A stretch of 64,000 bases of DNA from Candidatus Omnitrophota bacterium (GCA_030650425.1 JAUSED010000009.1:142846-206845); one strand, 5' to 3'; shown: positions 17,250 to 64,000, counted from the first letter of the stretch. Notes: a model not told the origin generated them from the letters alone. Numbers and translations: made by a program.

Positions 17250-17895
17250 CTTAAGCAAAGAAAAATTAACCAGCCTATACCTTAACGAAAAGAAATCCAT
17301 GGGAGATATAGCTAAAATCTATGGCGTTTCCCGGACAGCGATATATAAAAGACTGAAAATATATGCTATAAAACAACGTTCTAAGTCAGAAGCAAGGATT
17401 GAAGCACAGAAACAAGATAAACTTCCCCAATTAATTGAGAAGGTTAAAAAGGTTACTGGCTCAGAACATAAAATAACGCCATCTAGACACCAGAAAGGAT
17501 TATATTACTTTCATTTCGCCAGAGAAAAACTTGCGGCGGATTTAGCGAAACTCGGTGTTTTACCCAGAAAGAGCCTAACAGTCAAATTCCCGCAGGTTCC
17601 AGAAAAACACCTGGCTGATTTCATAAGAGGAATCTTTGACGGTGATGGCAGTGTGTTCTTTGATAAGCGCCGGCCAAAATTCCCCTTACGATCAAAGTTT
17701 GTTAGTGGTTCGGAGGCCTTTATAGAAGGATTACAAAAGGCCATTGAAGATTATTTAGGTATGCCTAAAAGGACAATTTATAAACAAAAAACCAAGAATG
17801 GATGGAGTCATATGTTTATATATGGACATAAAGACAGCACAAAATTGTTTGAAATTTTATATAAAAATACCCAAAATGGGCTATTTAGAACGTAA
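17233..17895 (+). CDS. Free-standing LAGLIDADG-family homing-endonuclease-like protein with N-terminal HTH
   Basis: LAGLIDADG motif FIRGIFDGDGSV; N-terminal HTH MGDIAKIYGVSRTAIYKRLK; overlaps upstream gene by 17 nt. Confidence 0.7.
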   Translation: MRKLSDLSKEKLTSLYLNEKKSMGDIAKIYGVSRTAIYKRLKIYAIKQRSKSEARIEAQKQDKLPQLIEKVKKVTGSEHKITPSRHQKGLYYFHFAREKLAADLAKLGVLPRKSLTVKFPQVPEKHLADFIRGIFDGDGSVFFDKRRPKFPLRSKFVSGSEAFIEGLQKAIEDYLGMPKRTIYKQKTKNGWSHMFIYGHKDSTKLFEILYKNTQNGLFRT

Positions 17896-18406: not shown

Positions 18407-19510
18407 TTATCTACGGGTTAAAATAACTTGGCTGGGATAAATTGTACCATCTCCAAAACGAGCGTTAATCCTATCTACTGCCTTCACCAAAGCCTCTCTT
18501 CGTTTTTCCTCAACTAATAAAGGAAGGTAGCCTTGCCGGCTTAAACCACTGGCAGTTACTCCCAGAGCCCGGATTTTATGGCCTTTTTTGGACATCCTAG
18601 CCATTATTTTAAGGGATCTCAGGTAGATCTCATAACTATCATTAGTGGCCATAGAGAAGGTTTTTTGGGCCTCAACATTGCCTATCTGTGGGCCATTTAG
18701 CCAAAGGTGAACCGTCTTAGCGGTCAGGCTTTGCTGGCGCAGACGCTCACCAACCATCTCAGATAACAGCCTAATCCAAGCAGTAATAAACTGGGGGTTT
18801 GCAAAAGCCCTTGGTAAGGTATATGAATGGCTTATAGACTTAGGGTACTTTTGAGTTTCCTCGGTTTCCTCAAACTTACCGGGATTTGCATCAAAGAATT
18901 CCGGTAAGTTTAGGTATACGTCCCAACAGGTTTTTAAGCCTTGAGCTCTTAAGCTTTGGCCGGTTTTGCCAGCCATCCCGCAGAGTTTCTCAAGCGGAGC
19001 GCGGCTTAGAATCTCCTTAAAATTACTCTCATCGATTAAAGTTATACCTTTTGGCTTATTAATTTTAGAGGCGAGCTTGGCTAAAAGCCAATTTTTAGCA
19101 ATACCAACCGAAGCAGTGATATTAAAGTTTGCATATATCTGCGCTTGAATTTGGACAGCTAATTGAAGCGGTTCAGAATAATCCTGAAGATCCATCTGGA
19201 ATTCATCCACTGAAGCATAATTCAGGCTGAAGCCGTAACCCTTAAGCAGCTCAAAGATCTGCTCTGAGGTCCAAATATACTTACCTTGGCTAGCCGCCAC
19301 AAATTCCAAATTTGAGCAAATACTAAAAGCTTCCCTTGAAGGCATACCGGAATGAATCCCTAAACGCTTGGCTTCATAACTGGCGGCGCAAACCACGGTA
19401 TGCATTTTATTAGCGCGCGAACCGATAATTAAGGGTTTATCTTTAAGGCGCGGGTTAATCGCCTGTTCAATTGAGGCAAAAAACGCATCCATATCAATAT
19501 GCAGGATCAT
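18407..19510 (-). CDS. dinB: DNA polymerase IV (Y-family)
   Basis: MILHIDMDAFFASIEQ N-terminus and overall Y-family architecture. Confidence 0.85.
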   Translation of the reverse strand: MILHIDMDAFFASIEQAINPRLKDKPLIIGSRANKMHTVVCAASYEAKRLGIHSGMPSREAFSICSNLEFVAASQGKYIWTSEQIFELLKGYGFSLNYASVDEFQMDLQDYSEPLQLAVQIQAQIYANFNITASVGIAKNWLLAKLASKINKPKGITLIDESNFKEILSRAPLEKLCGMAGKTGQSLRAQGLKTCWDVYLNLPEFFDANPGKFEETEETQKYPKSISHSYTLPRAFANPQFITAWIRLLSEMVGERLRQQSLTAKTVHLWLNGPQIGNVEAQKTFSMATNDSYEIYLRSLKIMARMSKKGHKIRALGVTASGLSRQGYLPLLVEEKRREALVKAVDRINARFGDGTIYPSQVILTRR

Positions 19511-24321: not shown

Positions 24322-24375
24322 GGGGGACACTTTCCTTTTAAGAGTTTCTGATAGCCCTGACAGAAAATGTCCCCT
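24322..24375. repeat. GGGGACACTTTCC...GAAAATGTCCCC hairpin element
   Basis: 13-nt arms separated by ~27-nt loop containing ctgatagccctgaca. Confidence 0.8.
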
Positions 24376-26364: not shown

Positions 26365-26877
26365 TCACCGTGCAGCCATAAGATAACCCCTTGCCCTTTC
26401 AGCCAATTTATAACGCGCAACAATATCCCAGAATGCCTTGCTGTGATTTGGTTCGATTAAATGCGCCATTTCGTGTATTACAACATACTTTCTGACCCAC
26501 TCCGGCATCAGGCCTATTTTATGCGAGATGCGAATCCTGGCGGCGCGATAATTACAGCAACCAAACCTGCTATTCTGCGTAGTGACATACTCTATTGATT
26601 CTAATTTAACCTTATTACCAAAATATTTTTCATTCAACGAACTCGCCAAATCCAAAAGATTCTGTTCTTTATCCAACTCCGCCTTAATCTTTTTTCTTTC
26701 GAATTTTAATTTAAAACCACTTACAATCTTATCCAAACGCTCTTGAGCCAGCATTAAGGGAGCATTAACTAAAAGCAGGTCATTAACTAATCTAGCGCTC
26801 ACTGTTCTGCGGCGCCTCGAACTACGGATTATTTTTACTTCCATATTTTTCCAATACTCTGGCAAATACCCGTACAA
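26365..26877 (-). CDS. YgjP/DUF45-family metal-dependent hydrolase (SprT-like HExxH)
   Basis: VVIHEMAHLIEPNHSKAFW zinc-binding motif. Confidence 0.7.
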   Translation of the reverse strand: MYGYLPEYWKNMEVKIIRSSRRRRTVSARLVNDLLLVNAPLMLAQERLDKIVSGFKLKFERKKIKAELDKEQNLLDLASSLNEKYFGNKVKLESIEYVTTQNSRFGCCNYRAARIRISHKIGLMPEWVRKYVVIHEMAHLIEPNHSKAFWDIVARYKLAERARGYLMAAR

Positions 26878-28240
26878 CCTCAGGACTAAACTGGGTTCCC
26901 GCGCATTTTTCTATCCTCGCCAACGCCTCTTTTTTGGTTAACGCCGTATTATAAGAACGCGAGGTAATCATCGCGTCATACGCATCCGCGACCGCGACGA
27001 TCTGCGCGAAAATATCGATCTGATCGGCTTTCAAGCCGTCAGGATAACCTTTGCCGTCATAATGTTCATGATGCGACCGAACCACAGAAAGCATTTGCGG
27101 ATCCGAGACTACGGGTTTTAATATCTCTTCTCCTACCTCAGGGTGTTTATGGACGATATCCCATTCACTTTCCGACAGGCCCTCTTTCTTATTCAATATA
27201 TCCTCATGGATGCCTAATTTTCCGATATCATGCAGCTGCGCTGTTTTTTTCAGTAATTCCGCCTTTTCAAGAGGCACCCCCATTTCCAGCGCGATCCCAT
27301 AGGCATATTCCCCAACCCTGTCCGAGTGGCCGCGGGTATAAGGATCTTTTGCTTCTAAGCTGCGCACCATTGCCTGCACCACGCGATAAAAATAATCGCG
27401 TAATTTGTCCCGGGCAGCTGCCAGGCTTGAGGCCATATTATTAAAAGAGGCGGCGAGTTGGCCAATCTCATCCTGAGAGGAAATCTCCACTCGATATTCC
27501 AAGTCGCCTTTGGTTATATGCTTAGTGCCGTCAATTAATTTTTTAATCGGAGCGATTATTCTGGCGGAAAATATGAAACCGAGGCCCAAGGCAATAATCA
27601 CACCCATAAACAAGACAAATATACCCCTGTATAATAAATCTCTTCCGGCAGAATAGACATCAGCGGCATCTATATCTATACCCAAAATAGCAACAGGACT
27701 GTTTCTCTGATCAAAAATAGGCGCATACCCTGAAAGAAGTTTACCCCATTCATCAATAGTCAAGTTAGTGTCCACGCTGGCTCCGGTAAAGGCCTTAAGC
27801 ATTTCGGGAAAACGCTGGGCATCGTATTTATCACCGGGATAAGATGTCGCTCCCAACCTGGTAATTCTTTCTGTCAGCGCGTCAGGATCAACCACAAACT
27901 GCCAGATACCCGGCTGATCTGTTTTGGCCATTATATAGATATACCTAATAACCGGATTAACCTGTTTTATTTTTAACAACTGGATAGCAATGTTCTTAAA
28001 GGAAGGGTTATTTATTCCCTCACGATTGAGTGGAATATTATTCAGCGCGGCGGCATCAATGGAAAGAGCGGCTGTTTGAGTAATTACCTTAAGTTTATCT
28101 CTAAGCTGATCGAACTGTGATTTTAAACTGTATCTAAAAAGGATAAAATTCCCCAGCAGCGCCACAAATAATAAAGAGAGAGTAAAAGACAGGGTTACCT
28201 TTACGTAAAAACTATTAAAAATTGATCTTTTCTTTTTCAT
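26822..28240 (-). CDS. Membrane sensor with periplasmic (Cache-like) domain, HAMP and HD-GYP c-di-GMP phosphodiesterase domain
   Basis: Two TM segments; HAMP; HD...HHEHYDGKGYPDGL HD-GYP signature. Confidence 0.75.
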   Translation of the reverse strand: MKKKRSIFNSFYVKVTLSFTLSLLFVALLGNFILFRYSLKSQFDQLRDKLKVITQTAALSIDAAALNNIPLNREGINNPSFKNIAIQLLKIKQVNPVIRYIYIMAKTDQPGIWQFVVDPDALTERITRLGATSYPGDKYDAQRFPEMLKAFTGASVDTNLTIDEWGKLLSGYAPIFDQRNSPVAILGIDIDAADVYSAGRDLLYRGIFVLFMGVIIALGLGFIFSARIIAPIKKLIDGTKHITKGDLEYRVEISSQDEIGQLAASFNNMASSLAAARDKLRDYFYRVVQAMVRSLEAKDPYTRGHSDRVGEYAYGIALEMGVPLEKAELLKKTAQLHDIGKLGIHEDILNKKEGLSESEWDIVHKHPEVGEEILKPVVSDPQMLSVVRSHHEHYDGKGYPDGLKADQIDIFAQIVAVADAYDAMITSRSYNTALTKKEALARIEKCAGTQFSPEVVRVFARVLEKYGSKNNP

Positions 28241-28258: not shown

Positions 28259-28311
28259 AGGGACAGTTTCCTGTCCGGCCTCCGTGAATAGCCATCTACG
28301 GAAACTGTCCC
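28259..28311. repeat. Variant hairpin element GGGGACAGTTTCC...GGAAACTGTCCC (compensatory variant of the GGGGACACTTTCC family)
   Basis: C-to-G change in left arm matched by G-to-C in right arm; loop retains gaatagccatctacgg. Confidence 0.75.
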
Positions 28312-28336
28312 TTGAACCGCTTTATTGATTACTTCT

Positions 28337-46912: not shown

Positions 46913-47040
46913 CCCTAGTAGGGGACACTTTCCAGACTCGGACAGTAGGGGACACTTTCCAACAAGCAGTAAACGAGCGTAGGAAAATGTCCCCTACTGC
47001 GTCTAGGAAAGTATCCTCTGAGCGCGCCCTGAGCGCGGGT
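46913..47040. repeat. Composite cluster of GGGGACACTTTCC-family units
   Basis: Two direct cagtaggggacactttcc copies, one inverted ggaaaatgtcccctactg arm, one degenerate ggaaagtatcc unit; 35-nt module shared with 61190..61235. Confidence 0.8.
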
Positions 47041-54041: not shown

Positions 54042-54853
54042 AAATTATAGCCTCGCGGTGTAATCATAAATTTATCTTTTATATAAGTTTTGGAATTGCC
54101 GATAATAATAGTGGTTACCATATTTATTTTTTCAAAGGAGGATAACTTACTCAAAGTAGTAAGACTAACTCTCTGCTTATCCCTATAGGCATTCTCTACG
54201 ATACCAACCGGTGTAGACGGTGATTTGTGCTTTAGCAAAATACGGCATGCTTCTTTAAAGGGGGTGACTCTTTTGGCGCTCTTAGGATTATAAAGCACAA
54301 TCACAAAATCGGCTGCCGCCGCCAGCTCAATCCTGCGTTTAATCAAATTCAAGTCAGTCAAAAGATCGCTTAAAGAAATAGCCGCGAAATCATGGGTAAG
54401 CGGCGCTCCTAAAAGAGCGGCGCAGCTGGTCGCGGCAATAATTCCGGGAATAATCTCTACTCTCAATTCATTCAGCCCGCTTTTCTTTAAAAGTTCTAAA
54501 ACTAAACCCGCCATGCCATAAACTCCGGAATCACCGCTGGAAACAATACAAACCCTTCTTCCTTTTTTAGCATCTTCTATAGCGCGCTTAGCCCTTTTTA
54601 CCTCCTCCATCATGCCGAAAGATTTCACTTCTTTATTATCCACCAAGTTTCCCAGCAGATTAATATAAGTCTTATAGCCAAAGATTACCTGACATTCTTT
54701 TATCGCTTCCCGGGCGCGTTGGCTTAAGTGGCCAATATCTCCCGGGCCGGTCCCGACTATCTTTAGGCTTCCCTGGCTACCGCTACGGTAACCCTGCCTA
54801 TTTTTGTTTTGGCTAAAATTAATTTTGGATTTCTTGCTACAATAAGCGCGCAT
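54032..54853 (-). CDS. cbiH: Cobalt-precorrin-3B C17-methyltransferase
   Basis: LKIVGTGPGD...VCIVSSGDSGVYGMAG; 5' end overlaps cbiG, true start uncertain. Confidence 0.75.
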   Translation of the reverse strand: MRAYCSKKSKINFSQNKNRQGYRSGSQGSLKIVGTGPGDIGHLSQRAREAIKECQVIFGYKTYINLLGNLVDNKEVKSFGMMEEVKRAKRAIEDAKKGRRVCIVSSGDSGVYGMAGLVLELLKKSGLNELRVEIIPGIIAATSCAALLGAPLTHDFAAISLSDLLTDLNLIKRRIELAAAADFVIVLYNPKSAKRVTPFKEACRILLKHKSPSTPVGIVENAYRDKQRVSLTTLSKLSSFEKINMVTTIIIGNSKTYIKDKFMITPRGYNLCS

Positions 54854-55512
54854 GGTTCACTCACCCCCTCAACCCCGATTTTTTCTTTGACAAAAGATGA
54901 TCTTCCGTATTCCCCGCTAAATTTTCTTATCAACTCAGTGGGAACTATTCTCAAAGAAACACCTAATTCCATACATGCCTCTTGTAAGCCCAATTCTTTT
55001 TGCTTTAAGTCTATGGTAGCAAAACACCTAACTTTTTTAATTGAGCATTTAACCCTACTCAAGGCATATCGCACTCCCTTAATGATCTCCTTTTTATCTA
55101 TACCGCGACGGCAACCTATACCGATGACTAATTTTTTACGGGATTCGGAAGCTGTGGTCACAACCGGCTGAGCACCTAAGCTATTTGCAACTTTGATCGC
55201 CAAATTGTTCGCGCCGCCTTCATGGCCGGATAAGAGGCTAATCGCAAAACGTCCCTCTTCGTCCACTACGACTACTGCCGGATCGCTATATTTATCTTTT
55301 ATATAGGAAGCGATAACCCTAACCACAATACCCGCAGCCATACAGAAGACGATCCCTTCGTATTCAGAGAATAGTTTTTGCGCTAAATCCCTTAGCCCGC
55401 CCTTCAATGACAAAGCATATACTTTGCATCCCGGAATACTCTTTTTAATCCTTAAAGCTGCATGCTTACCTTTTTTGGTTATCGCGACAATAGCGACCTT
55501 CATCCCGCACAT
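54763..55512 (-). CDS. cbiG: Cobalt-precorrin-5A hydrolase
   Basis: MKVAIVAITKKG...VVTTASESRKKLVIGIGCRRG. Confidence 0.7.
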   Translation of the reverse strand: MCGMKVAIVAITKKGKHAALRIKKSIPGCKVYALSLKGGLRDLAQKLFSEYEGIVFCMAAGIVVRVIASYIKDKYSDPAVVVVDEEGRFAISLLSGHEGGANNLAIKVANSLGAQPVVTTASESRKKLVIGIGCRRGIDKKEIIKGVRYALSRVKCSIKKVRCFATIDLKQKELGLQEACMELGVSLRIVPTELIRKFSGEYGRSSFVKEKIGVEGVSEPCALIVARNPKLILAKTKIGRVTVAVAREA

Positions 55513-55519
55513 TCTTTCT

Positions 55520-55630
55520 TATAGGGGACACTTTCCTTTAGTCATAGGGGACACTTTCCTTTTGGGTGTTCCCTGATAGCCCTGACGGAAAATGTCCCCT
55601 TCTGGGCTGATGGAAAGTGTCCCCTGCTGT
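55520..55630. repeat. Cluster of two nested/tandem GGGGACACTTTCC...GGAAARTGTCCCC hairpin units
   Basis: Left arms at 55524 and 55547; right arms at 55597 and 55612; loop ctgatagccctgac. Confidence 0.85.
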
Positions 55631-56381
55631 TAGCCCTCTTCCTAAACATATGCCCAAAATCCTTAGCGTACAGTTTAGATTTTTGGTAATTCTTTTTGAA
55701 AACATCCCCAATGATGATTAAAGCCTGGCGGTTAATCCCTGCCATTTTAACTTTTTTTACGATATCCCGCACTGTACCGGTTATTTTTCTTTCCTGCGGC
55801 AGGGAAACTTTTTCGATCACGGCAACCGGCGTATTCAATCCATAGCTTTTCTTTATTTTTTTTACCACGTCTTCTATTCGGTCAATACTTAAAAAAATAA
55901 CCAAAGTAGCTCTAATCCGGGCCAATCTTGCCAAATCCTCTTTTACCGGCACTTTGGTTCTGCCTGAAATTCTAGTCAATATCACTGTCTGGCTGACTCC
56001 GGGAAGCACAAGCTCCTGCCTCAAGCTCGCGCTAGCTGCCTGAAAAGAACTTACTCCCGGAATAACTTCATAGGCTATCCGCTCTTTTTCGCACCAATCC
56101 ATTTGTTCTTGAATCGCGCCATAGATAGACGGATCGCCGCTATGCATTCTCGCTATAATCTTATCACTATGCTTGTGCTCTTTAAAAACCCCTAACACCT
56201 CATCTAGGTTCATACTGCTGGAATCATAAAGCCGCGCGTCTTTCTTAGCTAATTTAATTATATCTTTATTGATTAACGAACCAGCATAAATGACAATATC
56301 GGCTTTTTCAATAATCTTCTTTGCTTTAATCGTCAACAATTCAGGGTCACCGGGCCCGGCGCCGATAAAATAGACTTTCAT
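55542..56381 (-). CDS. cbiF: Cobalt-precorrin-4 C11-methyltransferase
   Basis: MKVYFIGAGPGDPELLT...IYAGSL; last ~30 aa (NSRGHFPSAQKG...) are repeat-encoded. Confidence 0.8.
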   Translation of the reverse strand: MKVYFIGAGPGDPELLTIKAKKIIEKADIVIYAGSLINKDIIKLAKKDARLYDSSSMNLDEVLGVFKEHKHSDKIIARMHSGDPSIYGAIQEQMDWCEKERIAYEVIPGVSSFQAASASLRQELVLPGVSQTVILTRISGRTKVPVKEDLARLARIRATLVIFLSIDRIEDVVKKIKKSYGLNTPVAVIEKVSLPQERKITGTVRDIVKKVKMAGINRQALIIIGDVFKKNYQKSKLYAKDFGHMFRKRANSRGHFPSAQKGTFSVRAIREHPKGKCPL

Positions 56382-57211
56382 TCCGCACCTACTTTTGGAT
56401 AGGGGACACTTTCCTTTAAAGGGCTTCGCGATAGCGCTGATGGAAAGTGTCCCCTGCGGTTGGGGTTTGGAAAGTGTCCCCTTCGACTGATGTTTCTCAC
56501 TATAATTACCGAAAGGTATCCTAAATTTTTATCCTCCAGAGAAGCGAGATCCCTAACAATCCTTTCATTAGCTTGTCCTGCATGGCTAATCAGCACTGAA
56601 GAAGCTAAAAGTTTCATCTTTTTAAGAAGCCGGATAATACTCTCTAACTTTGAGCCTATTTTCATTAATACCACTGTGTCAAATTCTTTTAGGGCTTCCT
56701 TTAAGCCTTTAAGATTCTTGACTACTGGTAAGATAGCCATTTTTTCATCACCCTTTAAGAGAGGTAAACCAATAGATGCCGCCGCGGCGCCAAACGCGCT
56801 AATTCCCGGAATAGTCTCTGTTTCCAGATAAGGAAAATTACTGCGCAGGGTCTCTAGAAGGTAAATATAGGTACTATAGATAAATGGATCCCCTATGGTA
56901 ACAAATGCGGCAGCCTTATTCTTTTTTAATTCCTCAACAATTATCTTAGCTGCGTTTAGCCAATAAGATTGCAGCTTATTCTTATCCTTAGTCATCGGAA
57001 AAGTAAGTTCAATAAAATTCTTATCTCCCAAAGCAAGTGCCTCTACTATGGAGCGGGCGCAAGATTTTCCGCCTTCGCTTGCCTTAGGAACAAAAATCGT
57101 CTTAACTTCATTGAGTATTTCTTTTGCCCTTAAGGTAAGCAGCTTTGGGTCACCCGGCCCAATACCTACCCCATAAAGTTTGCCCTTTATTTCGTTACTA
57201 CCATTACGCAT
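56378..57211 (-). CDS. cbiL: Cobalt-precorrin-2 C20-methyltransferase
   Basis: LYGVGIGPGDPKLLTLRA; C-terminal ...RRGHFPNPNRRGHFPSAL tail is repeat-encoded. Confidence 0.75.
   Translation of the reverse strand: MRNGSNEIKGKLYGVGIGPGDPKLLTLRAKEILNEVKTIFVPKASEGGKSCARSIVEALALGDKNFIELTFPMTKDKNKLQSYWLNAAKIIVEELKKNKAAAFVTIGDPFIYSTYIYLLETLRSNFPYLETETIPGISAFGAAAASIGLPLLKGDEKMAILPVVKNLKGLKEALKEFDTVVLMKIGSKLESIIRLLKKMKLLASSVLISHAGQANERIVRDLASLEDKNLGYLSVIIVRNISRRGHFPNPNRRGHFPSALSRSPLKESVPYPKVGAE
56400..56485. repeat. GGGGACACTTTCC hairpin unit with duplicated right arm
   Basis: Left arm 56402..56414; right arms 56442..56454 and 56469..56481; loop cgcgatagcgctga. Confidence 0.85.
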
Positions 57212-57807
57212 AAGCCAAATCCTCGCATTTTAGATAAACTTATTAAATTAGTCTTAACTATCCGTTCATCAGCATAGCTAAGATTCTCAAAGACAACCGT
57301 CTTTCTATTTTTTATCCCCCGTTCAAGTAAATATCCCGCAATTTTTTGAGGAGGAAATTTTCGATCGGTAAGCAAAAATACCTTAGCGGCAGCATTTACT
57401 TCTTCCGCTAAATTGCCGGGGGGCCGGCCATGAACACTGATAATCTTGGCGTCTTGCCAGCTTTCACCCATCCTGGCAAAGGCAAGCTGGAGCGTGCTTA
57501 TTCCCGGGATAATTATATATTCTTTTTTCTTTAAAATCAATTCTACCTGCCGTAGAAAACTGTACAGTCCCGGATCTCCTGAAACCAGAAGAACGATCCT
57601 TTTCTTATCTTTATTCTTTTTTATAAATGAGCCGGCTTCTTTAAAATGTCCTTCAAGGTATATTTTTTTTTGATCCGGAGAATAAAACTGCGCTAATATG
57701 CGCTTTGCCCCGATTAAACAATCCGCCTTTTCTATTTCCCTGATGGCTGCAGGAAGTAAATAGTCAAGTGTTCCCGGGCCTGCTCCGATGATATACAGTT
57801 TAGACAT
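57187..57807 (-). CDS. cbiE: Cobalt-precorrin-7 C5-methyltransferase
   Basis: MSKLYIIGAGPG...; start placed at the internal ATG 57807 (the ORF-track start at 57834 lies inside the repeat). Confidence 0.7.
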   Translation of the reverse strand: MSKLYIIGAGPGTLDYLLPAAIREIEKADCLIGAKRILAQFYSPDQKKIYLEGHFKEAGSFIKKNKDKKRIVLLVSGDPGLYSFLRQVELILKKKEYIIIPGISTLQLAFARMGESWQDAKIISVHGRPPGNLAEEVNAAAKVFLLTDRKFPPQKIAGYLLERGIKNRKTVVFENLSYADERIVKTNLISLSKMRGFGLCVMVVTK

Positions 57808-57812
57808 ATTTA

Positions 57813-57970
57813 TGCATCTTGTTGTAGGGGACACTTTCCTTTAAGCCGTCTCTTATAGCTCTGACGGAAAATGTCCCCTGCGGTTGTGCATCTTGTTGTA
57901 GGGGACACTTTCCTTTAAGCCGTCTCTTATAGCTCTGGTGGAAAGTGTCCCCTTCCGGGGTCCCCTACGG
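57813..57970. repeat. 74-nt tandem duplication, each unit carrying a complete GGGGACACTTTCC...GGAAARTGTCCCC hairpin
   Basis: tgcatcttgttgtaggggacactttcctttaagccgtctcttatagctctg(a/g)(c/t)ggaaa(a/g)tgtcccc occurs twice, period 74. Confidence 0.85.
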
Positions 57971-59040
57971 CTTTTAGGATATTCTGCTAATACCTCTCCC
58001 TGCAAGGAAAGCAGCACGCAGTCAATCGAAAGCTGATGATTTACAAATTCATTCAGCACATCTACCGTTCTTTTTGCGAGCATATCAAAAGTCCGCGTAA
58101 ACTTGTGTTTCTTTAATATATCAACAGCGGCTTCGGCTGATACTTGTCTGGACACCTCTTCAATAATCTCTTTTCCCGCTCCGCAAAGCAAGGCAAAATT
58201 CGCGATTGTCTTGATACGATTATCCCCGAATTTGATATTGGTGTCAAGCTGGCCATGCGCAACCTTCACTAATTTACCAATATAACCTACCAAAAGCACT
58301 TTTTTTATTTTCTTATTCAAGCATTCAGAGAGCATAAATCCGACATGGTCCCCAATTTTGACGATGGAATCCGGTTTAAGTTTAAGCCTTTCTTGACAAA
58401 ATTTTTCTCCCACATACCCTAAAACAAGAGTAGCCCTTCTATATCCCGCGGCCTTCAGCACGTCGAGTTGAAGAGATAAAGATGTCTTGTAGGCATCCGT
58501 TGATTTAGGCTCGACTATCCCGGTTGTACCGATTATAGATATGCCTCCCACAATGCCCAGCCTGGCGTTAAATGTGCGTTTGGCTATCTCCCTTCCTTTG
58601 GGAACGCTGATGATCGCCTCGATCCCTTTCCCTTGGTGGAGTAGATGCCTGACAATTTCTTTAAGAATCATCGATCTTGGCGTAGGATTAATCGCGTATT
58701 CGCCGACTCTCACCGCTAATCCCGGCTTGGTAACTATACCAACTCCTTCTGCGCCTCGCAAGAAAATCCCTTTTTTCCCGGAATATTGCACCCGCGCACA
58801 GATCCTAACGCCATTAGTTACATCAGGATCATCTCCGGCATCTTTAATTACCCCGCACTGAGCAAAATCCCTGCCTATTTTTTGGCCAACGATCTTCAGC
58901 TTAAGCTTTACGCCTTTAGGAGTTTCCACCTCAACGCTTTTTACCGGCTTTTTGGCGGCAAGCATAAGGCTCGCGGCTTTAGCAGCTGCCTGAGCACAGG
59001 TACCGGTGGTAAATCCTTTCCTTAGTGGTATTGAGTTCAT
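57853..59040 (-). CDS. cbiD: Cobalt-precorrin-5B C1-methyltransferase
   Basis: LRKGFTTGTCAQAAAKAA; C-terminal ~35 aa are repeat-encoded. Confidence 0.8.
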   Translation of the reverse strand: MNSIPLRKGFTTGTCAQAAAKAASLMLAAKKPVKSVEVETPKGVKLKLKIVGQKIGRDFAQCGVIKDAGDDPDVTNGVRICARVQYSGKKGIFLRGAEGVGIVTKPGLAVRVGEYAINPTPRSMILKEIVRHLLHQGKGIEAIISVPKGREIAKRTFNARLGIVGGISIIGTTGIVEPKSTDAYKTSLSLQLDVLKAAGYRRATLVLGYVGEKFCQERLKLKPDSIVKIGDHVGFMLSECLNKKIKKVLLVGYIGKLVKVAHGQLDTNIKFGDNRIKTIANFALLCGAGKEIIEEVSRQVSAEAAVDILKKHKFTRTFDMLAKRTVDVLNEFVNHQLSIDCVLLSLQGEVLAEYPKSRRGPRKGTLSTRAIRDGLKESVPYNKMHNRRGHFPSEL

Positions 59041-59957
59041 TGTGTTAATTGAGTCGTAGGGGACACTTTCCTTTTGAGAGTCCCCGGATAGCCCTGACGG
59101 AAAATGTCCCCTTCTGCGCGCCCTACGGTTGGTAAACTCTTTATAGCTTCTCTTGCCTCACCAATAGTAAGCGGAAGGCTGTTAAAATTAAATCCATCTT
59201 TTTTCCTTAAAATCTCGAATAAATGCCCTATGCGGGGTAATCTCAATTTGGCCTCCCGGATTACCTGGGCCTGAGAAAAAACATTTTCGGGCTTACCATC
59301 AAGTATAATTCTTCCTTGATTTAAGATAATCACACGATCGATGAACAAAGGCACCAGATCCACAGAGTGCGTGGACATCACCATAGTGATTCCATTTTCT
59401 TTGTTTAATTTTCTCAATAGCCGCATAATGGCGCTCGCTCCCATCGGGTCCAGGGATGAAGTTGGTTCATCCAAAAGCATCACCTCCGGCCCCATAGCTA
59501 AAACGCCGGCTAAACAAATCCTTTTCTTCTCGCCGAAACTTAAATTATGTATAGGCTTATCAGTAAATTCTAACATACTGACCGCGCCAAGCGCGTACTC
59601 TATTCTTTTAGAGACCTCCTCTTTGGTAAGCCCCATATTCACCGGGCCAAAGGCGATATCTTCGCCTACGGTCGAAGCAAACAGCTGGTCATCGGGATTT
59701 TGAAAACAAGTACATATTTTTCTAAATAGCATATCCTTGTTGATGGATCTAATATTCTTCCCTTCCAAATAAATCTCGCCTTTCGCGGTTTTTAGAAGGT
59801 GGTTCAGTATTTTTAAGAGCGTTGTTTTACCGGAACCATTGGCGCCTAAGACACCTAAAAACTCACCTTTCTTGACCGAAAGATTGATACTCCGCAAAAC
59901 GGATTTTCCGTCAGGATAACTAAAGTGGAGATCTTTTGCTTCCAGAATATCGACCAT
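59037..59957 (-). CDS. cbiO: Cobalt ECF transporter ATPase component
   Basis: GANGSGKTT, LSFGEKKR, LLDEPTSSLD; C-terminal ~25 aa are repeat-encoded. Confidence 0.8.
   Translation of the reverse strand: MVDILEAKDLHFSYPDGKSVLRSINLSVKKGEFLGVLGANGSGKTTLLKILNHLLKTAKGEIYLEGKNIRSINKDMLFRKICTCFQNPDDQLFASTVGEDIAFGPVNMGLTKEEVSKRIEYALGAVSMLEFTDKPIHNLSFGEKKRICLAGVLAMGPEVMLLDEPTSSLDPMGASAIMRLLRKLNKENGITMVMSTHSVDLVPLFIDRVIILNQGRIILDGKPENVFSQAQVIREAKLRLPRIGHLFEILRKKDGFNFNSLPLTIGEAREAIKSLPTVGRAEGDIFRQGYPGTLKRKVSPTTQLTQ
59053..59130. repeat. GGGGACACTTTCC hairpin unit with extended outer stem CGTAGGG...CCCTACG
   Basis: Arms at 59059..59071 and 59099..59111; loop ccggatagccctgac. Confidence 0.85.
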
Positions 59958-59998
59958 AAAATTATTGCTAATTAGTTAATGCTGAAAAACCCTCTTTT

Positions 59999-60090
59999 CG
60001 TCATTCTGAGGACCCTGAGTGTAACGAAGGGGACGAAGGATCTCAAGAGATTCTTCGTCGTCCGCCTGCGGCGGACTCCTCAGAATGACG
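59999..60090. repeat. GTCATTCTGAGGA...TCCTCAGAATGAC composite palindromic element (~92 nt)
   Basis: 13-bp perfect outer inverted repeat; inner hairpins gacgaagga.../...ttcgtc and gtccgcc-tgc-ggcggac. Confidence 0.8.
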
Positions 60091-60820
60091 ATAGGAAGAG
60101 ACTGTTCAATATTAAAAGCGCCCCTAAAATTATAATGAAAATGATAACGGCGGCAGTATCTTTGAAACTAAACTCTTTTTCTCCGGAGATATTCCGCGTC
60201 GAACCGTCGTATCCGCGCAGCAGCATAGATTCATATACCGCGATCGAGCGATCATAGGCCCTGATCACGGTTGAGCCCATTAATTCGCCAAAAGATTTCA
60301 AACTCCGGCCTAAACTGCTGTATCCTAAACGCGCTCTTTGGGCATTCCTGATCGTAACCGCGTCCTCCAGCAATACAAAGCTGTAGCGATAACTAAGCAT
60401 AGCTATCTCAACCCAGGTATTCGGCACTTGAAACCAGCGGGCCGCATGGAGCAGCTTATTTACCGGCGTGGTCATCGATAAGCATATAATTAAAGAAACG
60501 GCGCCTAAGACCCTTGCCACAATTAAGAAACCGGCTGCCAATCCATCGGCCATTCCATAAAAGAAGATCTGCATAATAAAAATCGCGCCTACCACACCCA
60601 AGGGGACGGCTAATCTAAGTAGAATAATCTTCGGCGGTATGCCGATCCCTAAAAGGATAACCAAAGATGAGAAAAAAACAATCAATGGCAGATAAGCATT
60701 ACGCGAAGAAACTACGATCATTATAGCCGCGGCTATAAAAAGCGCCTTGGCTCTCGCGTCCACCTCCGTTAAATAGTTTACCTTTTGAGCAAAATGATCA
60801 CTAAATACTTCGTTCAGCAA
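60080..60820 (-). CDS. cbiQ: Cobalt ECF transporter T component
   Basis: Multi-TM CbiQ pattern; 7-nt overlap with cbiM-N start. Confidence 0.7.
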   Translation of the reverse strand: MLNEVFSDHFAQKVNYLTEVDARAKALFIAAAIMIVVSSRNAYLPLIVFFSSLVILLGIGIPPKIILLRLAVPLGVVGAIFIMQIFFYGMADGLAAGFLIVARVLGAVSLIICLSMTTPVNKLLHAARWFQVPNTWVEIAMLSYRYSFVLLEDAVTIRNAQRARLGYSSLGRSLKSFGELMGSTVIRAYDRSIAVYESMLLRGYDGSTRNISGEKEFSFKDTAAVIIFIIILGALLILNSLFLSSF

Positions 60821-61986
60821 TTATGTCCCTTTTTCTCGGTAAAAAGCTTTCTAAAATTATAACCCATTACAAATCCTCCTGCCGCGCCTGCCAGAAGGAA
60901 AACAAAAAGCAACAGATCCCCTTGGTCGGTATTGATAAACGGCGTCCAGGCAGGCCGTCCATGTTCCGCGCTAATCTTCTCCACCACGCTCTCATCTACT
61001 CCGCTCCATTTAGGTAACAGTTCAACTAGCAAAAGAACTCTGTCGTAGGGGATGTCGTAGGGGACACTTTCCTTTTCAGGGCTTCGCGATAGCGCTGATG
61101 GAAAGTGTCCCCTGCGGTTAGGGCTTAACGCGCGCGAAGACAAGACGGCTATTGACGCAGGGGCACTTTCCTTTGAGTCTTGAGGGGACACTTTCCTACT
61201 CGCGTTTACTACTTGTTGGAAAGTGTCCCCTATGCGTGGAAAGTGTCCCCTACGGTTAAGGTTTAACGCGAAGGCAGGCTGGCTATTGGCGCATAAAAGC
61301 AGGCATATGAATAGAACGCCTATACTCTTTTTTACCACTCCCAGCGAAACTAAAATCTCAGGCCTTCTTTTATAGACAAAAACAATCATTCCCCCGGTCA
61401 AAAATCCCTCTAATATGCCTAAAGGAAGTTGCGTAGGAATAAAGGCAATCAGTACAGTGTAAAAAAGCGCTAACATCGGTTTGCTTCCATGAAGGGCCGA
61501 GGCCAATTCCAAGGAAGTTGTGATATAGGTAGCCCAATCCGCTAAAAGCCCGGCTGCAAATCCACAAAAGAATAAAGGAAGTTTAAATTTTCTTAATATC
61601 TTGAATGCGATGAAGGCGGCAAATGAACCGGCTATACCCATAGATACAATATCCGCGCCCCAAGTAGTCAGGCCGCCATGGGCTAAAAATAAAGCCTGGA
61701 TAAGCAAGGCAATGGAAGTTACAAATATGCTCATTATCGGCCCGATTAAAATGGCTGATATTCCGGTTCCGGCAGGATGAGAACAGGTGCCAGCGGTAGG
61801 CACAGGCACAGGCATACAGGAGATAACAAAAACAAGGGCTCCCATCAGCCCTAAAAGAGGTTTAAAACTTGGAGTTAGTTTTACCTTCTTCTTTATATCA
61901 AAGATCCCCTTGATCAGAAAAGGAGCGGCTAGCGCAGACCAGATACCAGCCCACCACAAAGGAAGAATCCCTTCTGAAATATGCAT
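60814..61986 (-). CDS. cbiMN: CbiM fused in frame to CbiN through ~250 nt of repeat sequence
   Basis: N-terminus MHISEGILPLWW... (CbiM); C-terminus ...GVDESVVEKISAEHGRPAWTPF...LLLFVFLLAGAAGGFVMGY (CbiN); no stop through 61040..61292. Confidence 0.65.
   Translation of the reverse strand: MHISEGILPLWWAGIWSALAAPFLIKGIFDIKKKVKLTPSFKPLLGLMGALVFVISCMPVPVPTAGTCSHPAGTGISAILIGPIMSIFVTSIALLIQALFLAHGGLTTWGADIVSMGIAGSFAAFIAFKILRKFKLPLFFCGFAAGLLADWATYITTSLELASALHGSKPMLALFYTVLIAFIPTQLPLGILEGFLTGGMIVFVYKRRPEILVSLGVVKKSIGVLFICLLLCANSQPAFALNLNRRGHFPRIGDTFQQVVNASRKVSPQDSKESAPASIAVLSSRALSPNRRGHFPSALSRSPEKESVPYDIPYDRVLLLVELLPKWSGVDESVVEKISAEHGRPAWTPFINTDQGDLLLFVFLLAGAAGGFVMGYNFRKLFTEKKGHNC
61040..61292. repeat. 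Largest cluster of GGGGACACTTTCC-family units: two copies of a ~110-nt composite unit, inside the cbiM-N reading frame
   Basis: Arms at 61060, 61100, 61159, 61184, 61218, 61238; direct repeat gg(t)taacgcg...ggctattg(a/g)cgca at 61116..61160 and 61253..61292. Confidence 0.85.
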
Positions 61987-63293: not shown

Positions 63294-63343
63294 AGTTTAT
63301 TCTTGATAAATAGATAAATAGGGACAGCGCCCATTTTTTTAGC

Positions 63344-64000
63344 TTAACGAACAGAAAAAAAATGGGCGCTGTCCCTATTTATCCTACAGCTGTTAATAAA
63401 GTTTTTAGCGAAATCCGTATTAGAGGCAAAATGCAGATGCGCGTAGCTGGCTAAAACGTTCTTAGTGACTAAACCGTCGTAAAATAGATTATCCTTGTCT
63501 TTGATGATTCTATAGGCAAAGGTAGAATTTTTAGGAATATTCGTAAGGCGCGACCAGTGGAAGAGATGCGCCCGATTTCTATCACCTTGATTACTCAATA
63601 TATTATCTTTGATCACCTGTACATTCACATAACCCATCCTATGCAACCTGTTACCCATATTCACTGAGCATTTAAATACCCCCACCATAGGGAATTTTCT
63701 TTTTTGGAAATCGATTAAATTTTTGACTAAATACATTAATCCGCCGCATTCGGCATAGATCGGCAGGCCATCTTTAGCTTTTTGATAAATCGACTGCCTG
63801 AGGCTTGCGTTCTTCGATAAATCAGAGGCAAAAACTTCCGGAAACCCGCCGCCAATATATAAACCATCGATCCCCTTCGGTAATTCCCTATCCCTCAAGG
63901 GGCTAAAGGTAACAATCTCTGCCCCCAAATGCTTCAATATATCCAGATTGTCCTGATAATAAAAATGAAAAGCCTTATCCTTGGCAATCGCTATCGTCAC
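63344..64000 (-). CDS. cbiA: Cobyrinate a,c-diamide synthase, 3'-partial (glutamine amidotransferase domain only; N-terminal part beyond window end)
   Basis: KDKAFHFYYQDNLDILK...GLYIGGGFPE...AECGGLMYL GATase-1 pattern; ORF open to the window edge. Confidence 0.75.
   Translation of the reverse strand: MTIAIAKDKAFHFYYQDNLDILKHLGAEIVTFSPLRDRELPKGIDGLYIGGGFPEVFASDLSKNASLRQSIYQKAKDGLPIYAECGGLMYLVKNLIDFQKRKFPMVGVFKCSVNMGNRLHRMGYVNVQVIKDNILSNQGDRNRAHLFHWSRLTNIPKNSTFAYRIIKDKDNLFYDGLVTKNVLASYAHLHFASNTDFAKNFINSCRINRDSAHFFSVR

Follow-up and report, generated by a model that had tools for sequence, protein, structure and literature searches.

A REPIN, or repetitive extragenic palindromic (REP) doublet forming a hairpin, consists of two inverted, conserved REP units around a less conserved spacer of variable length and sequence (PMC3337134). 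The gene for the REP-associated tyrosine transposase (RAYT) is flanked by REPs of the population that it serves (bioRxiv 10.1101/2021.07.10.451892), and criteria for assigning a RAYT to a REP population have been set out (PMC3337134, PMC5581495, bioRxiv 10.1101/2021.07.10.451892). REPIN-associated RAYTs (groups 2 and 3) have been reported mainly from gammaproteobacteria. Here we analysed a 64,000-nt stretch of DNA from Candidatus Omnitrophota bacterium (GCA_030650425.1 JAUSED010000009.1:142846-206845; hereafter the window), which carries a family of hairpin repeats, several of them in its cbi operon. We consider it likely that these elements are non-autonomous REP/REPIN-like repeats served by an Omnitrophota RAYT.

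Searching both strands of the window for the 13-mer GGGGACACTTTCC with at most two mismatches revealed 27 matches to the arm GGGGACAYTTTCC where 0.91 were expected, a count that none of 100 shuffles reached. The matches, about one per 2.4 kb, all stood in inverted pairs, with no singleton in the window, and fell into eight clusters. A relaxed search on the stem base GGGACA...TGTCCC yielded a ninth hairpin (63319-63377), and nearly all occurrences of GGGACA or TGTCCC in the window lay in the nine hairpin sites. A preliminary description of this DNA had counted seven loci; the repeats it reported are genuine, but its number is too low and the variant at 63319-63377 had been missed. The expected stems were predicted for all window copies, with fold z-scores of -2.2 to -11.

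Each unit is built from two inverted arms of 13-14 nt, A-GGGGACAYTTTCC ... GGAAAGTGTCCCC-TA, which enclose a spacer of 20-42 nt under little constraint, and has the sense-strand consensus (C)AACCGYA - GGGGACA(Y)TTTCC - spacer - GGAAAGTGTCCCC - TAY. The 13 arm positions were near-invariant across the 137 arms of 34 sequences, position 8 alone being polymorphic (C in 98, T in 36). On the 5′ side, 108 of the 137 arms had A at -1; T at -2 and G at -3 were each present in 62, and GTAG began many loops. Spacers varied in sequence both between and within genomes. The commonest window spacer was RTCAGNGCTATC...AAA, and 7-8 window copies contained the loop core GATAGCSCTGAY; two copies (46948 and 61184) had an unrelated second loop type, in mutually opposite orientations, and TGCGGTTG or TACGGTT lay directly 3′ of most window copies. 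The matches, folds and loop core together confirm the earlier claim of a hairpin repeat family with a conserved stem and loop core. Among 156 sequences, 136 arrangements were arm-loop-arm′, 17 were nested (arm-arm-loop-arm′-arm′) and 15 included one extra arm, and no isolated outward-facing arm pair was present. In the nested forms the outer arms were more degenerate and the inner arms best conserved.

A short word of this kind might instead be the signal of a DNA-level process, such as a DNA-uptake sequence or the binding site of a chromosomal protein, and not part of a copied element. The extreme conservation of the arm across genomes while its surroundings drift, and its density in the window, would suit such a role, and pairs of the DNA-uptake sequences of Neisseria or Haemophilus form hairpins. 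However, arms hardly ever stood alone or lay unpaired within coding sequence (947 kb contained 19 singletons, 17 of them degenerate), whole units were duplicated within a genome together with their loop and flanks, and the distal stem covaries, as shown next, which a fixed word would not permit. We regard an uptake or binding word as very improbable.

Comparison with L035 (loci outside the window carry L numbers) revealed that the arms are conserved while the loops drift. In L035, which has three insertion sites in common with the window, CbiD is 80% identical to the window protein in amino acid sequence and the coding DNA 81% identical in nucleotides; in the three orthologous copies 78 of 78 arm positions were identical, versus 61 of 80 in the spacers. 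The system is a clear natural example of repeats whose arms stay fixed across species as their spacers drift. The preliminary description had put forward stem covariation as a check, and the data support it. We collected stems by their base (GGGACA...TGTCCC within 90 nt), which left the six distal positions unconstrained. Of the 38 distinct stems so obtained, 30 paired at five or six of the six distal positions, and two-sided changes occurred at all 7 variable stem pairs (73 cells versus 21 in shuffles). The covariation score was 0.393 compared with 0.127 in shuffles, none of 500 shuffles being as high, and pairing dropped to 34-55% in slid registers. Selection has acted on the stem as a structure, and on its base also as a sequence. 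Covariation of the distal stem fits recognition of a structure, not of a fixed terminal repeat.

Clustering of the 951 open reading frames (ORFs) around about 150 copies gave no recurrent transposase family, apart from a single RAYT-like hit. This 162-aa ORF (L139:331-819), found by phmmer, matched Pfam Y1_Tnp at 1.6e-14. Its family comprises 805 homologues of about 161 aa, every named one from Omnitrophota, with 57-77% identity among the best 120. Searched against the PDB, a profile of the family gave a full-length match to E. coli TnpA-REP (4ER8) at 6e-9, with IS200/IS605 (ISDra2-type) transposases at 0.04; a single-sequence search of the PDB returned no match. The L139 gene has a canonical element 174 nt upstream of it and arm fragments downstream. 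Across eight RAYT loci (L139 and L156-L162), arm-like hairpins stood on both sides of the gene in all eight. The start is preceded, at about 80-120 nt, by the hairpin GACGCTTTCC-(10 nt)-GGAMAGTGCCCC together with GGAAAGTGTCATA, and the stop is closely followed by another hairpin, which is (A)GGGGCACTTTCC-CGAACAAAAT-GGAAAGTGTCTGT or a variant particular to the lineage. The neighbouring genes differed across the eight loci. In the five 20-kb loci the RAYT gene lay on the strand opposite to its neighbours. The density of arm-like motifs, measured in five of the eight loci, was 10 per kb in the RAYT flanks versus 0.30 per kb elsewhere in these loci, a 33-fold difference. The CGAACAAAAY-loop hairpin was also dispersed beside canonical arms in isolate STB_56. 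The RAYT family is confined to Omnitrophota and flanked by arm-like hairpins, features of the sort by which published work assigns a RAYT to its REPs, and we infer that a RAYT of the L139 type would mobilize or copy the canonical elements. A cognate transposase was among the findings that the preliminary description had listed as counting against its proposal; the candidate RAYT with its flanking hairpins speaks against a purely regulatory reading. Searches by tblastn with IS200, IS608 and E. coli RAYT queries gave no match in the first 35 loci, and between closely spaced copies (L007, L016 and L014) there was no transposase, only ordinary genes.

A second, distant Y1_Tnp/RAYT-like gene (L075:1077-1664), 39% identical to the L139 protein, is flanked by a different palindrome, GGGTCAGACCC/GGGTCTGACCC, suggesting that gene and palindrome may form a second REP-RAYT pair in Omnitrophota-type contigs.

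The survey of neighbouring genes also bears on a more conventional origin, in which the elements would be miniature inverted-repeat transposable elements (MITEs), that is, deletion derivatives of an insertion sequence (IS) with a DDE-type transposase, bearing 13-15-bp terminal inverted repeats and, like Correia elements, a TA target duplication. The TA or A that flanks many copies, at the -1 and -2 frequencies given above, would agree with this, as would the presence/absence polymorphism of copies and the loops and flanks that copies within a genome have in common. Yet the flanks in the window are asymmetric (5′ NNA versus 3′ TAY), filled and empty sites reveal no clean target duplication, and the 951 ORFs contain no recurrent transposase besides the RAYT-like gene and no full-length IS with these repeats. 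Inner arms that are best conserved and outer arms that decay are the reverse of transposon ends, and the distal stem positions covary. A DDE-derived MITE is, in our judgement, improbable.

Several observations weigh against the REP/REPIN-RAYT reading. The L139 ORF scored 75.3 bits against the NCBIfam model REP_Tyr_transpos (REP-associated tyrosine transposase), just below the curated cut-off of 80. L139 alone among the eight RAYT loci has a fully canonical element; the other seven are flanked by variant arms that match about three quarters or more of the 13 positions and enclose 10-nt loops. The 64-kb window, part of a contig of 290161 bp, contains no RAYT, the association being seen in relatives only, and a RAYT of the window's own metagenome-assembled genome (MAG) was not found among the protein accessions listed. 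The arm GGGGACACTTTCC has no internal self-complementarity, the palindrome being the whole arm-loop-arm′ unit, whereas classical REPs are palindromic. There was no sign of excision, of a circular junction or of a target-site signature. Finally, the invariant arms, and a sense-strand bias described below, could reflect selection for a host function.

The elements extend well beyond the window. A scan for the exact pattern, run on one genome per species, gave 33 loci, which lay in Candidatus Omnitrophota MAGs or single-amplified genomes except for one in a Planctomycetales-labelled bin. A metagenome scan found at least 120, together at least 153 further loci; apart from that one bin, every locus with a name was from Omnitrophota, and viral contigs contained no copy. 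With Rfam 15, the window gave only a tRNA at gathering score and, below threshold, only generic hairpin (miRNA-precursor) hits, so the earlier remark that the repeat could not be placed in any described repeat or riboswitch family stands as far as Rfam is concerned. A literature search found no publication with the 13-mer and none relevant on Omnitrophota palindromes. The hairpins appear to be a previously undescribed family with Omnitrophota as its lineage. A cyanobacterial HIP1-type repeat was also considered and rejected, GCGATCGC occurring at chance level.

Within the window, the elements are concentrated in the cbi operon, which holds six of the hairpin sites. Every gene from about 18.4 kb to the window end lies on the minus strand, so the minus strand is the sense strand for all copies. 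The gene order by NCBIfam and Pfam is CbiA-CbiX-CbiC-CbiMN-CbiQ-CbiO-CbiD-CbiE-CbiL-CbiF-CbiG-CbiH, in agreement with the names assigned previously, and the CbiD protein has the accession MDO8662742.1. The operon carries six REP-like insertions plus one unrelated palindrome in about 10 kb. An orthologous cbi operon, L034, has the same gene order and a CbiD of 79% amino acid identity; its start and stop codons overlap and it has no arms at all. Because this orthologous operon with overlapping genes is free of repeats, the window copies are insertions. Occupied junctions carry 50-140 extra bases relative to L034, beginning a few codons before the ancestral upstream stop. The three insertion sites common to the window and L035 indicate that at least part of the cbi load is old. 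The preliminary description had tied the elements to the cbi operon, an association that did not hold up: in other Omnitrophota these arms are found at about 150 intergenic sites with unrelated surroundings, and the L034 operon is without any. It had also placed them at five cbi junctions; placement at junctions was correct, but the cluster at 61060-61250 lies inside the cbiN part of the CbiMN ORF.

Four of the six cbi sites extend a protein. The element, read as a consensus, is open in all three sense frames, all of which are used by the four tails together, so the upstream ORF continues through the inserted repeat. At the CbiF/CbiG junction, a nested double hairpin (55524-55624, minus strand, as are the cbi copies that follow unless stated) encodes the last 30 codons of CbiF and its stop (ORF end 55542). 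At the CbiL/CbiF junction, a hairpin with an extra 5′ arm (56402-56481) is traversed by the last 39 codons of CbiL (ORF end 56378). The CbiD/CbiE junction holds two hairpins (57813-57953, with arm matches at 57827-57952) in a 74-bp tandem duplication of 1.9 copies and 95% matches; here the repeats encode the last 39 codons of CbiD, whose ORF ends at 57853, and CbiE starts at an ATG at about 57807 instead of a GTG at 57834. The tail of CbiO (ORF end 59037) crosses the single hairpin at the CbiO/CbiD junction (59059-59111), which is the same as the orthologous L035 copy at 53 of 53 nt. Past the last residue shared with L034, CbiF has 30 residues in the window versus 2 in L034, CbiL 39 versus 8, CbiD 39 versus 6 and CbiO about 32 versus about 4. 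The fifth site is an in-frame insertion of about 243 nt in the cbiN part of the fused CbiMN ORF (61011-61266), composed of a single hairpin (61060-61112), a nested hairpin (61159-61250) and flanks. Residues 241-325 of the window CbiMN align to 4 residues of L034, an 81-aa insert without a stop codon that consists of the repeats and sits in a loop after the first CbiN helix. The sixth, at the CbiA(CobB)/CbiX junction (63319-63377, no strand assigned), is the superfamily variant TAGGGACAGCGCCCATTTTTTT...AAAAAAATGGGCGCTGTCCCTA, which keeps the conserved stem base TAGGGACAG/CTGTCCCTA and forms a perfect 22-bp stem, 29 bp with flanks (-49.4 kcal/mol, z -11). Local duplication has occurred, as seen in the 74-bp tandem and in the copies at 56402 and 61060, which are nearly identical with their flanks included.

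The tails contain the peptides RGHFP, KGTFS, GDIFR, KESVP, RKVSP and GKCPL, bearing out the earlier proposal that CbiF, CbiL, CbiD and CbiO end in repeat-encoded sequence. The tails are by-products of read-through into the repeats. Conservation of the tails in orthologues, which had been suggested as a check, was not found: CbiD orthologues are about 360 aa long and stop a few residues after ...YPKK, and an RGHFP ending occurs only in the closest relative, P0003 (L035). For the annotation of Omnitrophota MAGs, C-terminal tails of 30-40 aa or in-frame inserts with RGHFP, KESVP, GDTFQ, RKVSP, KGTFS or GKCPL should be taken as repeat read-through.

Other sequences at or near these junctions are themselves repeated. 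The CbiQ/CbiO junction contains a different palindromic insertion of about 120 bp (59975-60095), CGTCATTCTGAGGA ... TCCTCAGAATGACG, which is missing from the orthologous L034 junction; related CGTCATTGCGAGGA-type repeats occur at window position 2545 and in L004, L021, L044 and L065, where they sometimes adjoin hairpin elements. Two CbiD orthologues of 382 aa, P0029 and P0030, have an in-frame insert of about 20 aa, SPVPSKESVRGGRRGGVRS, within CbiD; it contains KESV, a peptide encoded by the 3′ arm, and may be another translated repeat. The stretch of 20-28 nt from element to start codon, TATAAGAAAGAAGGTGCGGG-G/ATG-AAGGT, is nearly identical at L035:4290-4317 and L035:5137-5164, window positions 55500-55523 and 56381-56401 resemble the corresponding L035 junction stretches, and TGCGGGATGAA also lies 3′ of an L001 element. 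The likeness of these stretches points either to gene conversion from one junction to another or to an element that extends further 3′ and brings the start region with it. A short hairpin repeat, CCCTCGAYG...CTCGGGATGGTTCGAGGG, is inserted in the flank or loop of GGGGACA elements at L097:7486-7560, L133:6002-6075 and L039:6280-6360.

The remaining window copies, also on the minus strand, lie outside the cbi operon. A single hairpin at 24323-24374 reads, on the sense strand, GGGGACATTTTCT, a type-1 loop and GGAAAGTGTCCCC, with a predicted RNA fold of -29.3 kcal/mol (z -2.9). A variant hairpin, AGGGACAGTTTCC/GGAAACTGTCCCT, at 28259-28312 (z -5.3) stands 18 nt upstream of the start of the ORF 26822-28240; two of its stem positions are altered on both sides, so that pairing is preserved. 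At 46921-47018, a nested double hairpin (arm, arm, type-2 loop, arm′, arm′; z -5.6) has a degenerate outer arm, GGAAAGTATCCTC.

In the RAYT-based account that we favour, a unit would fold as a hairpin in single-stranded nucleic acid. A RAYT specific to the lineage, a HUH/Y1 transposase of one domain related to E. coli TnpA-REP, would recognize the folded unit and copy it. New copies would land in intergenic DNA or in the loops of older copies, insertion of the latter kind giving rise to the nested forms, and local duplication would yield the tandem forms. In this genome six copies have landed in a cbi operon of ancestrally overlapping genes; owing to this overlap, each insertion removed the last few codons of the upstream gene, which gave way to a repeat-encoded tail of 30-40 aa, and cbiN gained its 81 aa in frame.

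The hairpins are not symmetrical with respect to transcription. T at position 8 (the wobble variant GGGGACATTTTCC) produces a U·G (or T·G) wobble on one strand and a C·A mismatch on the other, and of 40 deduplicated copies between co-directional ORFs, 38 had the wobble on the sense strand (p = 1.5e-9); perfect-stem copies were split 10:9 between strands. Wobbles outside stem position 8 (6 versus 3) were too few to use, with counts biased by the search pattern. This asymmetry raises the question of whether the hairpins are kept mainly for their action in mRNA, as intercistronic or 5′-untranslated stem-loops that set stability, processing or translation, with mobile origin secondary, an explanation compatible with the RAYT model. 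The 38:2 bias and its lack in perfect stems would fit such a role. In four mixed contexts (L013, L018, L020 and L077) the element was sense to the adjacent minority-strand gene, following that gene and not the majority strand, which leans towards transcription. The end of the 3′ arm mostly lay 8-32 nt before the next start codon. Orthologous copies have unchanged arms, stable folds are predicted for every copy in the window, and a subfamily with a conserved 5′ flank, described below, precedes EF-Tu, L7/L12, enolase, PurM, AspRS and IlvC. However, on average 88% of ORFs per locus share one strand, so the sense strand is usually also the lagging-strand template; RNA selection and replication-coupled transposition of single-stranded DNA then both predict the wobble bias and explain it equally well. 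No wobble copy between two minority-strand genes was present among the loci examined. Proximity to the start codon rather than to the upstream stop was not significant (19 versus 12, p = 0.28) and was dropped as an argument, the closely related L034 operon does without any element, and the copies have no U-tract, no sigma-70 consensus and no Rfam family. An intrinsic terminator or a sigma-70 promoter was likewise rejected, since consensus scans called no element as either.

We think it doubtful that mRNA action is the main reason for which the hairpins are kept. Some RNA-level effect is possible, the wobble bias being confounded with replication direction. A more far-reaching and equally tentative version is that a REP-RAYT population was co-opted as a phylum-wide RNA device, in which the GGGGACA/UGUCCCC base would be read by a host factor or the RAYT, selection on the transcript hairpin would explain the 38:2 bias, and one lineage would have built a leader cassette of about 110 nt before highly expressed genes (EF-Tu, L7/L12 and enolase). 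A host-level role in RNA is for us the most interesting alternative to the REP/REPIN-RAYT reading, if an unlikely one. The preliminary description had likened the elements to REP sequences and bacterial interspersed mosaic elements (BIMEs) and proposed an RNA-level role; the likeness is upheld, and a regulatory role specific to the operon is not supported. The wobble-strand bias offers a simple handle on whether such hairpins are selected as RNA or as single-stranded DNA.

The leader subfamily just mentioned consists of a conserved 5′ flank of about 55 nt (...GCGNTTGCAATGGNCCAAAAGACTANAGANNNCGGTAAAGACGAGAG), the hairpin, then GAC, a ribosome-binding site and ATG. It occurs in L010, L015 (for example L015:2965-3133), L019, L033, L039, L054, L074, L088, L093, L097, L119, L129, L133 and L144, and precedes unrelated housekeeping genes, encoding EF-Tu, L7/L12, enolase, PurM, GcvH, AspRS, IlvC and phosphoglucomutase. 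It has no sigma-70 consensus and no Rfam match, and inspection of the 55-nt flank by eye found no -35/-10 or sigma-54 boxes. The subfamily might be a leader or promoter cassette.

Two further features were noted. Between about 18000 and 20000 in the window the gene strand flips from plus to minus (the last plus ORF ends at 17895 and the first minus ORF starts at 18407) and the sign of the GC skew changes, so that the region looks like a replication terminus or origin. At L014:1751-2255, two small adjacent ORFs beside an element cluster look, from their sequences alone, like a toxin-antitoxin pair.

Among known systems, integron attC sites resemble the Omnitrophota elements in that the stem base is conserved and the upper stem and loop vary, that folding is strand-specific, and that the site lies a short way upstream of where the next gene starts. 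Unlike attC sites, the elements have no R″/R′ core sites (RYYYAAC/GTTRRRY), their flanking genes are conserved operon genes and not cassettes, and no integrase was seen among the neighbouring ORFs. Rickettsia palindromic elements (RPEs), which are 100-150 bp long, are likewise palindromic repeats translated in frame, as are the copies in cbiN and the four C-terminal tails here. The lineages are unrelated, however, and most Omnitrophota copies are intergenic, translation of the repeats following from the very tight gene junctions; we know of no RAYT associated with RPEs. Correia elements of Neisseria (CREE/NEMIS) are also small inverted-repeat elements beside genes that are co-transcribed, form RNA hairpins, can alter ORF ends and encode no transposase. 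They measure 100-155 bp, with 26-bp terminal repeats, a TA duplication and a conserved interior with an integration host factor site, whereas the Omnitrophota elements have a variable interior, 13-nt arms and no clean TA duplication. To our knowledge, Correia elements have no RAYT link.

The REP/REPIN sequences of E. coli and Pseudomonas fluorescens are closer. Like these, the Omnitrophota elements are short, abundant and hairpin-forming, with a copy number far above chance; they consist of two highly conserved inverted arms enclosing a spacer whose length and sequence vary, they form clusters and higher-order arrangements, and their distribution is restricted to a lineage. As in REPIN-RAYT systems, related hairpins flank the gene of a small HUH/Y1 protein whose closest match is TnpA-REP (4ER8). 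In described systems the RAYT is typically a single-copy, vertically inherited gene, and its product binds and cleaves the REP in vitro. The differences lie in the arm, which in contrast to a classical REP is not itself palindromic; in the loops, which span 20-42 nt in dispersed copies versus 10 nt beside the RAYT, where the form resembles a single classical REP; in the commonness of nested copies; and in the retention of the same arm across many species. Enterobacterial REPs are said to have a conserved GTAG at the 5′ foot of the hairpin, a feature only partly present in the Omnitrophota arms. The host, too, sets this system apart from the mainly gammaproteobacterial REPIN-RAYT systems, as a candidate phylum outside Proteobacteria, and a well-populated system among the very small cells of this uncultured phylum would extend the known range of long-lived, vertically inherited repeat populations.

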